A DNA stretch of 45,738 nt from Seison nebaliae. Taxonomy: Eukaryota. A program made the translations under genes and the position numbers. The notes below the pieces were generated by a model, which was not told where the DNA came from, made no database searches, and saw only the letters and a program-made list of their open reading frames with translations. The stretch lies in NCBI GenBank assembly GCA_023231475.1, contig JALJEE010000177.1:1-45738 (forward strand), read 5' to 3'. Positions 42,624 to 45,601 of the stretch are shown here, piece by piece; positions within the stretch are counted from its first letter, which is position 1; every line of letters starts with the position of its first letter.

Positions 42624-45601
42624 ATGTATTATTTTCTGGTAATTCTCTTATTATTCGTTAATTCAAGTTAGGTTTAATAATTTTTGAAAAACTATAATTA
42701 TTAATTTTAGGTTATGAAACCCTGTCGCAATGTGTTGACAATCCTTTTTGTGAGAAGATTTCGATCATTCAATGTCAATTTCATAAAATTGTCAAAGAAT
42801 GTCCTTTAAAATGTAAGAATTTAGAATGTATTTCAGGTAGTTATTAAAAGAAATTAATTATTGATTAAACAATATATTGATGGTCCGTTTATTTGCTGAT
42901 TAAGAATTCAGTTGTAATGACCATTCAGAATGCGCTAATATTCCTTTGAATTGTTCAAATTATAAATTTCAAATAATATGTCCATCCAAGTGTCATAATA
43001 TTAACTGTAACAAAGAGAGTTTTATATTTCCATTCTTTTTACCGATTCATTCATTATTTTGCAGACAAATTTTTTAAACGAAATTTATGCGTGGATGACA
43101 ATTCAATATGTCCCACACTTCCTTATGAACATTGTCGATTGGATCATGTGAAAACTATTTGTCCAGTAAAATGTCGTTCTATGGCATGTGTAGAAGGTTT
43201 TTAATTTAAATATTTTTTTCAATTTTCTTAATCTAGTTTTCTTTTAGTTCAATGTACAGATATACCAGATTGCAACAATTCAAGTTTCTTTGAAAATTGT
43301 ACTAATTCATTTATAATGAATATGTGTCCTATGAAATGTAATGCTATTTACTGCAATAAAAGTTGGTTATTTTCTTTTATATTGATCATGATTTTTATTG
43401 ACGAATAGAGGATATTTGTAATGAAGACCAGAGTGTTTGTAAAACGATCTCAACTAGTTACTGTTCTCAATTACACATCAAACAAATTTGCCCTAATCTA
43501 TGCAATTCTGAAGAATGTATTTCACGTTAGGAAACGACATTGTTGTTTAGTAGCTATAGATTTATATTCCTCTAATTTGCGTGATTAGGGAGTTCTGAAG
43601 AAGGTGAATGTAAAGATAAAGATACGATATGTTCCAAGGCAACTACAAAACAATATTGTCATTTAGATCAAATTCAGGAAGTTTGTCCAAAAACGTGCAA
43701 TAATTGCCTTAAGATAAGTTGTTTCTGTTTTTCACCATTAATTTAATTGTAAGTTTAGAGAAATGTGTCGATGAGATGTTTTGTAATACTATTGATCCCG
43801 GATATTGTCGATTAAACAAAATAGTGGAAAGTTGCCCTTTAACCTGTCAGCAATGTAACAAAGACAGTTAGTGTTTTATTAATTCGAAAGTATTTATATA
43901 AATTTATTGTTTAGCTCAATCCTGTGTAGATCATAAAATTTGTTCCAAAATTGGCACTCAATATTGCGCGCAAAAAAAAATACGAGAAATGTGCAAAAAA
44001 AAGTGCAAAATTGCTCCATGCGGTTAATTTATTTTAATTACCTAAAAACTCCGTTTCATCAAAAACATGATATTTTAGACTGTTTTGACGAATCAGTTTG
44101 CGACAATGTGCCGTTCAGCGCCTGTCGCTTAAGGCACGTGAAAGAACTTTGTCCAAAACTCTGCGAAGAATGCACTAGTTCAATAAATTTTTTAAAACTA
44201 CTGATCATTATCAAATTTTTTTATAATTTATTCCACTGTATGTAAAAGTTAGCACATGTAGGGATCAAAAATTTTGTACCAGATCACAATTCAATCAACA
44301 TCATTGTAGCGAAAGAATATCAAACCTTTGTCCAAAGACATGCAATTTACTAAAATGTTTATCTGAAAGGCAAAGTTGTATTTGACTCTTAATATACTTG
44401 ATATTTACTAAATATAATTGCAATGTTTAGAATTTTGTCGTGAACAAATTCCACAAGAATACTGCCGACTAAAACATATAGAAGAGTTATGTCCGGAAAC
44501 GTGTCATTCTACAAGCGTTTCACCAACTGTGACGTTGGAAGTTGCAACTACTAGTTAGCATTTTATTATTGTGATATTAGTTTTATTAGGTAATTAATAT
44601 TTAATATCACCAATCTTCATCGGGCGATAAGTTATTTGGGCCCTGATATTTTATTATATCATAAGATATTTTCTCTGGTCGACGGTGGTCTGCAACGATT
44701 CAGGAATGGCAGGACAGATATCGAACTTATTAATAGTAAAATGGACAACGTCCAAGGAAGTAGGTATCCTTAGAGAACAATAATCCTCTAATAAGTTGAT
44801 AAATTAGTAGAACAACTCACATTGGTTTAACATAGAATAAGAAAATCGGTAGAAGAAATAAATTTCGATATATTTCGACATTTACGAGAGAAGAACTGAT
44901 TATCGCTTCAATCCACAATCAATCAGTATATACTATATATAGGGAGAAGAAAAAAAAGCGAAGAATAAAGCACTGAAAACAGACAAATCAGTTTTGAAAA
45001 CATTTCGATTATAAACTTCATATAGAATTTCCTCAACCAATTTTCTAAAAATCCAAATAGGTTATGTAACTCTTCTTCTTGTTAAATAATTTAAACATGA
45101 AATAATGTTTAACAATATTATTGTTATCCATTGATTTTATAGTTATGTTATATTTGATTAATGGTAGCTTTGGAAGGTAATTTATACCTTATGTTTATAA
45201 GGTAATTTTTTTCCAAATTGAGATAGGATTGAAAAATTAATGACCTAAATTCTTTTTCAATAGTTGAATAAAACCACGCGATTATGTATTATTATAATAA
45301 TATTATACATACTATAATAATTAATTAATATATGAACGGTTTTTTGGTACCATTTACAGACAAAATGACAACAACGACTCGGAGAACCACAACAACAACG
45401 AGCACCACCACAACAACGAGCACCACAACAACAACGAGCACCACCACAACGACGACCACCACCACAACAACGAGCAACATCTTTTCATTATTGCCAAATT
45501 CACTAATGCAATCATTCAAATCATTCCAAAACTCCTCCTTCACCCTTTCTTCTTTCTCGCTTCCAGTCCCATTCTCACAACCGATTGAAATAATTTTATA
45601 A
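42624..45601 (+). CDS. Secreted multi-ShK-like protein: signal peptide, 10 full + 1 partial Cys6 domains, Thr-rich tail (13 exons)
   Basis: Exons 42624-42666, 42711-42836, 42905-43018, 43065-43196, 43248-43361, 43409-43525, 43589-43717, 43759-43866, 43915-44022, 44079-44177, 44249-44374, 44431-44553, 45360-45601. All internal exons are multiples of 3 with phase-1 introns. Each encodes C-x5/6-C-x6/8-C-x7/8-C-x3-C-x2/4-C. The last exon is less certain. Confidence 0.85.
45385..45476 (+). repeat. ~18-bp degenerate tandem repeat encoding (T5S)n mucin-like tract
   Basis: ACAACAACGAGCACCACC-like units. Confidence 0.85.
45470..45573 (-). mobile_element. Fragment of LINE apurinic-like endonuclease (RTE-like)
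   Basis: GTGSEKEERVKEEFWNDLNDCISEFGNNEKMLLV matches the 'EEKEEFW..L...I.......iv(lGD)' segment of RTE/CFDP2-like endonucleases; truncated just before GD. Confidence 0.65.

Follow-up and report, generated by a model that had tools for sequence, protein, structure and literature searches.

What does an epizoic rotifer make from a string of short exons that each encode one small, cysteine-rich module? Seison nebaliae is a seisonid rotifer, and the Seisonidea are epizoic relatives of the acanthocephalan parasites. Within the 45,738-nucleotide stretch of its DNA analyzed here (the window), positions 42624 to 44553 of the plus strand hold a signal exon of 43 nt followed by eleven module exons of 99 to 132 nt, each a multiple of 3 in length. 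A preliminary description of this DNA read the array as a hidden series of ShK-like domains, one per exon, with phase-1 introns throughout, and likened the modules to diversifying effectors. The modeled exons are as follows.

42624 to 42666, plus strand: exon 1, a start codon and a hydrophobic, signal-peptide-like stretch (by inspection and hydropathy), with a phase-1 donor at 42667
42711 to 42836, plus strand: module 1 exon, six cysteines
42905 to 43018, plus strand: module 2 exon, six cysteines; absent from both public isoforms
43065 to 43196, plus strand: module 3 exon, six cysteines; predicted fold weakly matches ShK-family peptides; apparent purifying selection relative to a diverged homologue
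43248 to 43361, plus strand: module 4 exon, six cysteines
43409 to 43525, plus strand: module 5 exon, six cysteines
43589 to 43717, plus strand: module 6 exon, six cysteines; above the Pfam ShK cut-off
43759 to 43866, plus strand: module 7 exon, six cysteines
43915 to 44022, plus strand: module 8 exon, six cysteines, net charge +7
44079 to 44177, plus strand: module 9 exon, six cysteines; the linker to module 8 is one residue
44249 to 44374, plus strand: module 10 exon, six cysteines
44431 to 44553, or through the stop at 44556 to 44558, plus strand: module 11 exon, four cysteines and a Ser/Thr/Pro/Val tail

The introns of this model are GT-AG and 41 to 71 nt long, two of their acceptors end in AAG, and no stop codon arises at any junction. 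We searched exhaustively for all GT/GC-AG introns of 30 to 400 nt that join the cysteine cores of neighboring modules in frame. This search returned 14 solutions at 11 junctions, every one of them in phase 1, with a single solution at 9 of the 11, among them the junction of the signal exon with module 1. Read-through without splicing is possible at none of the 11. Splicing of the array into one transcript is predicted on these sequence grounds, and within that prediction the earlier account of eleven one-module exons behind a signal exon, joined in phase 1 throughout, was borne out.

A cysteine-spacing pattern built from the array's own modules was scanned across the window and 100 shuffles. 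It matched 12 times in the window (10 in the array and 2 in an upstream paralogue, all on the plus strand), whereas the shuffles averaged 0.02 matches and never exceeded 1. A codon-usage score trained on seven other window genes places the modeled frame ahead of the five alternatives in 10 of 11 modules, the exception being module 9; the lead is narrow in modules 8 and 10. The codon score is negative in all 11 introns, and the twelve exons are intact, with neither stops nor frameshifts.

Contigs of five sequencing runs from two studies carry the array DNA as an identical single copy and, as expected of DNA, contain no intron-shaped joints. Run X5 (record 24) also contained a diverged homologous contig of 768 nt, about 85% identical over 43057 to 43199, at a depth of 3.2 versus 27.9. 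Its alignment covers the module 3 exon, where 22 differences separate it from the array, and reaches into modules 1 and 4; the introns and module 2 fail to align at 80%. The low depth makes a co-sampled relative the likely source. S. nebaliae is reported to have two strains (PMC8351084), and the contig may come from the second of them. Eight of 12 listed differences (of the 22) are synonymous in the modeled frame, where the expected share is 0.22 (p = 0.001), and the other five frames give 0 to 4 synonymous differences among the same 12, with four of these frames touching stops. This synonymous excess, found in the modeled frame alone of six, confirms at the sequence level that the frame is coding. 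The pN/pS ratio for module 3 is 0.14, or 0.46 if the ten unlisted differences are all replacements. Within the scope of the test (12 of 22 differences in one exon, compared with one low-depth contig), these values point to purifying, not diversifying, selection on module 3.

Ten of the eleven modules have six cysteines within 31 to 34 residues, and module 11, with four, is degenerate, as originally noted. The cysteines are spaced 5/6-6/9-7/8-3-2/4, with full modules ending in C-x3-C-x2-C (3 of 10) or C-x3-C-x4-C (7 of 10). A typical ShKT domain has about 35 residues and the first of these two endings, so that most of the full modules depart from it in the gap between Cys5 and Cys6. Residues between the cysteines are indeed highly divergent; non-cysteine identity among modules averages 24% (range, 12 to 44%). 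In leave-one-out profile comparisons, all 13 modules (11 from the array and 2 from the paralogue) scored 29 to 53 bits, and each ranked above 200 of 200 shuffles in which the cysteines were held fixed; therefore, the modules share an ancestry that extends beyond the cysteine pattern. A module tree had no well-supported inner branch (0 of 10). No tandem repeat was found in the array DNA, and its DNA repeats are short only. The low non-cysteine identity, the lack of a tandem repeat, and the shortness of the DNA repeats would fit an old duplication, and tandem duplication of a single ShKT exon, long ago, is the likely origin of the array. An origin by exon duplication is supported by the homology of the 13 modules. 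The label of diversifying effectors is not supported, given the purifying signal in module 3 and a between-module divergence that fits old duplication.

Are these ShK domains like those of sea anemones? Pfam ShK (PF01549) recognizes module 6 (24 bits; cut-off, 20.9) but finds no match in the other 10 of 11 modules even at E 10, and both paralogue modules fall below its cut-off. The Pfam-negative modules are tied to module 6 by the leave-one-out homology. Searched against the PDB, the module 6 sequence has a sole match, the ShKT domain of MMP23 (E 0.09), and the module profile finds nothing under E 0.3 among PDB sequences, the single ShK-family row being OspTx2b (E 2.4). Against 1.84 billion representatives, the profile has nine non-self matches: six carry Pfam ShK (above the cut-off in four), another is EGF-like, and the last two are unexplained. 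The predicted structure of module 3 (pLDDT 73), with helices at 20 to 24 and 26 to 31, has as its sole Foldseek match the ShK homologue AsK132958 (5wcv; E 3.3, rmsd 2.0) and as its sole VIA match, among 48,161 chains, a Brugia ShK-like peptide (2mcr; Z 2.0, rmsd 2.2, 33 aligned). The module 6 model (pLDDT 70) has no structural match in the two libraries, an absence that does not amount to a different fold; both models are of middling confidence.

The two cysteines missing from module 11 are exactly Cys1 and Cys6, and Cys1-Cys6 is a disulfide pair in ShK. The loss could be consistent with ShK pairing, with terminal truncation as the alternative. Some ShK domains of Cumia also lack Cys1 and Cys6 (PMC6409789). 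The modules would presumably pair their cysteines 1-6, 2-4, and 3-5. Pfam yielded no other credible domain family in public isoform P0121, and with its hydrophobic exon 1 the protein has a signal peptide and ShK domains as its only recognizable domains. Each line of evidence is weak by itself, but every family named is ShK, and we regard ShKT ancestry of the modules as highly probable. The proposed ShK-like identity is consistent across Pfam, the profile, and the module 3 fold, while remaining weak for most modules and unmatched in the module 6 model.

The array is not wholly hidden, because a public gene model, SNEBB_005775 (“hypothetical protein,” Seison nebaliae), already covers 10 of the 11 module exons with the same boundaries. 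It is an independent prediction, not RNA evidence. The public model drops module 2, adds an exon at 44632 to 44759, and fuses exons upstream; its two isoforms have identical module content and differ only in their fused 5' ends. In isoform P0122, the fused upstream exons at 40150 to 40545 (plus strand) encode 103 residues without cysteine modules and are unrelated to the array. Judged by the exon boundaries, at least one intron in that region is in phase 0, and therefore phase 1 is not forced genome-wide. The fusion also takes in the upstream paralogue, which has phase-1 splice solutions at both junctions:

40801 to 41197, plus strand: upstream paralogue, with a signal exon (40801 to 40822), module exons at 40869 to 41030 and 41079 to 41197, and its own stop

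We rejected the fusion of paralogue and array; it loses the paralogue's last cysteine and its stop and crosses an internal signal peptide. For this reason the gene model of the preliminary description is better than the public one. Between the two ShKT-like genes lies a short repeat (41603 to 41682) that occurs in dozens of other contigs, with a summed depth about 30 times that of single-copy DNA, and a second, lower-copy repeat lies near 41899 to 41935. The housekeeping neighbors at 2360 to 33000, named by Pfam, include a carboxylesterase, CDT1, a 1,682-codon kinase open reading frame, a fatty acyl-CoA reductase, an alpha/beta hydrolase, a short-chain dehydrogenase, a DEAH helicase with an S1 domain, SAC3/GANP, and an acid sphingomyelinase.

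The 3' end of the gene can be read in two ways. Module 11 is followed by a Ser/Thr/Pro/Val tail of 16 to 18 residues, and the stop at 44556 to 44558 overlaps a phase-1 donor-like GTTAG at 44554 that matches three other donors in the gene. Judged from the sequence, the gene may extend past 44553, and the next candidate is the following exon:

44632 to 44780, plus strand: uncertain candidate last exon, hydrophobic and transmembrane-like; the public model uses it up to 44759

This exon has a GC content of 0.38, against 0.25 around it, and a mean hydropathy of 1.75 over 21 residues. A soluble end after the short Ser/Thr tail and a membrane anchor appear about evenly balanced. A Thr-rich, mucin-like exon at about 45360 to 45600 was set aside as unlikely; the region is multicopy in every DNA run, the minus strand has the better codon score over the Thr-rich frame (45362 to 45598), and Pfam Mucin scores far below its cut-off. 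From 45330 to the contig end at 45738, the DNA is multicopy, with two repeated pieces besides a simple repeat rich in (ACA/ACC). Its minus strand resembles what we take to be remnants of a LINE element, for which Pfam gave no support.

Whether the product could be a toxin precursor depends in part on two features, a channel-binding motif and cleavage sites. A Lys-Tyr dyad between Cys3 and Cys4 is the textbook mark of ShK blockers (PMC9610955), and none of the 11 modules has it. Module 2 alone has a Lys-aromatic pair there (Lys-Phe), and in four more modules the dyad position is occupied by Lys or Arg followed by an aliphatic residue. The modules may nonetheless act on K+ channels, since the dyad is reported to be neither needed nor sufficient (PMC6409789), and effects on channels or on hosts are known from ShK proteins without it (PMC6409789, PMC9610955). 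The linkers are 1 to 11 residues long and contain no regular basic cleavage sites. In four of the 10, basic residues are absent both before and after the junction, the junction codon possibly excepted; one has an internal dibasic pair, and the junctions of the public model create such a pair in two others. Ser/Thr-rich tracts are absent between modules, the sole such tract being the tail after module 11.

The contrast with a jellyfish gene is instructive on this point. NnK-1 of Nemopilema nomurai encodes five tandem ShK-like peptides in a six-exon gene, one of which blocks Kv channels (PMC11122761). The exon count suggests one domain per exon. All five NnK-1 peptides are flanked by basic cleavage sites (PMC11122761), whereas the Seison linkers have no such pattern, and the Seison protein therefore likely stays whole. 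Because it lacks both the Lys-Tyr dyad and regular cleavage sites, a polytoxin precursor is unlikely.

We postulate that the gene encodes an intact, exported, multivalent ShK-like protein of a body surface or gland secretion rather than a precursor of free toxins, a reading to which we assign a probability of roughly 0.6. Tandem duplication of one ShKT exon would have produced the eleven predicted phase-1 exons of this single-copy gene. The signal peptide would be cleaved, and the exported protein would remain in one piece, its ShK-like modules closely strung together and disulfide bonded. By analogy, it may coat or line a body surface such as the mouth, a gland duct, or an attachment site, where several different modules could bind partners multivalently. 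The symmetric exons would then be a record of how the gene was built; mixing of the modules would be possible by arithmetic.

An alternative hypothesis is that the protein is secreted, whole or cut, onto the host Nebalia, where it would modulate K+ channels or immune cells, a role that ShK proteins have been proposed to play in Steinernema, Cumia, and the salmon louse. The signal exon and ShK-only body suit this idea, as does a basic residue five positions before Cys4 in 5 of the 11 modules. Life on crustaceans offers the opportunity, with hemolymph feeding possible in some seisonids (PMC8351084), and the four-domain Sc-ShK-1, which also lacks the dyad, alters fly immunity (PMC9610955). The best Atlas feature match in its favor is a salmon-louse ShK cluster (score 0.79), which is a lead only. 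However, the near absence of dyad-like pairs, the linkers without regular cleavage sites, the purifying signal in module 3, and the possible membrane anchor all weigh against a host effector, and S. nebaliae, which lives on Nebalia crustaceans, is described as probably commensal, as are seisonids more broadly (PMC8351084). We consider this hypothesis unlikely, although the likeliest of the alternatives. Regulated skipping of the symmetric exons might instead generate, where animal and host meet, a large set of module combinations. Loss of any module exon would leave the reading frame intact, module 2 is missing from both public isoforms in what could be real skipping and fails to align at 80% in the homologous contig of run X5, and two acceptors end in AAG. 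Yet extracellular modules of animals are normally phase 1-1 (PMC8001218), introns of 41 to 71 nt would leave little room for regulation, and the public isoforms vary at their fused 5' ends and not in their modules. The public model is, moreover, error prone, crossing an internal signal peptide as it does. Such a generator of diversity seems improbable.

The 3' end invites a further reading, in which the protein is a membrane receptor or cell-adhesion molecule of the animal's own tissues, with no role on the outer surface. Its layout would be a signal peptide, 11 modules, a short stalk, one transmembrane helix, and a tail of about 28 residues. The resemblance of the GTTAG at 44554 to other donors speaks for it, as does a candidate last exon that is hydrophobic, richer in GC than its surroundings, and used by the public model. 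But the acceptor is weak, the 78-nt intron would exceed the other eleven, an Arg falls inside the predicted helix, the codon score is no better than that of another frame, and shorter phase-1 acceptors exist that give a soluble end. We give this reading little credence, and equally little to a combined one, in which a membrane-tethered eleven-module array at the point of host contact is varied by in-frame skipping. If true, the latter would constitute a combinatorial ShK repertoire, undescribed in the literature searched, in an epizoic rotifer from the base of the lineage that gave rise to the parasitic thorny-headed worms. Protein searches with the module profiles recovered the array's own cluster alone among 331 longer candidates and nothing among 2 short ones, and the lack of a close relative could hint at a pseudogene or a chance pattern. 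Twelve intact exons, a synonymous excess in the modeled frame alone, and identical single-copy DNA in contigs of five runs make that very improbable indeed.

The preferred reading, an intact surface or secretion protein, can be set beside systems already described; nematodes, snails, jellyfish, and the salmon louse all have multi-ShK proteins. The nearest tested analogues, the PHAT proteins of Caenorhabditis elegans, are gland products that line the pharynx and consist of a signal peptide and ShK domains only (PMC2563036). They have 1 to 4 domains with Ser/Thr-rich spacers (PMC2563036), whereas the Seison protein has 11 modules, linkers of 1 to 11 residues, and perhaps a membrane anchor. Toxocara mucins (Tc-MUC) likewise place Ser/Thr-rich tracts between or beside ShK domains, unlike the Seison array, which has no tracts between its modules. 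The multiShKL proteins of Cumia reticulata offer another comparison: like the Seison array, they are lineage-specific, ShKT-only proteins of a host-associated invertebrate that grew by internal domain duplication and gene duplication, and the dyad is mostly missing (PMC6409789). They differ in having 2 to 4 domains and in their expression, which is in the salivary gland of a blood feeder (PMC6409789), whereas the Seison gene is known from DNA. Sc-ShK-1 of Steinernema is, like the predicted Seison product, a secreted multi-ShK protein, and the dyad is absent from all 4 of its domains (PMC9610955). The salmon louse has 125 ShK domains in 24 genes (10.1101/2021.03.15.435234). Steinernema and the louse are true parasites in which host effects have been shown or proposed (PMC9610955, 10.1101/2021.03.15.435234), whereas for Seison two genes are seen in the window.

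Atlas feature matches score 0.77 to 0.88 and are leads only. Among the distant profile matches, P0123 and P0124/P0132 are arrays of ShK-like modules spaced by Thr/Pro tracts, some of them with four cysteines, and one distant-match cluster includes a protein of a choanoflagellate (Acanthoeca). Neither this gene nor any seisonid ShKT array was described in the literature searched, and the term ShK is absent from the main text of PMC8351084.

The usual design in animals places each extracellular domain on an exon flanked by phase-1 introns, with the first intron near the signal-peptide boundary (PMC8001218). The Seison array is predicted to share this class 1-1 layout, with phase-1 introns on both sides of each domain (11 of 11 junctions). 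Common class 1-1 modules are mainly beta folds, whereas ShKT is a small helical fold, and the term ShK does not occur in that review (PMC8001218).

The architecture is ordinary for an animal extracellular protein, so the surprise is modest, but the array offers a clean example of a helical class 1-1 module. For the annotation of this genome, the analysis replaces one public gene model, unnamed and wrongly fused, with two genes for ShKT arrays. For the family, it contributes a divergent ShKT subfamily from Seisonidea that Pfam mostly fails to detect. The array is thereby a concrete candidate with which to ask if secreted ShK arrays go along with the passage from free life to host association, an association for which nematodes, Cumia, and the salmon louse provide precedent.
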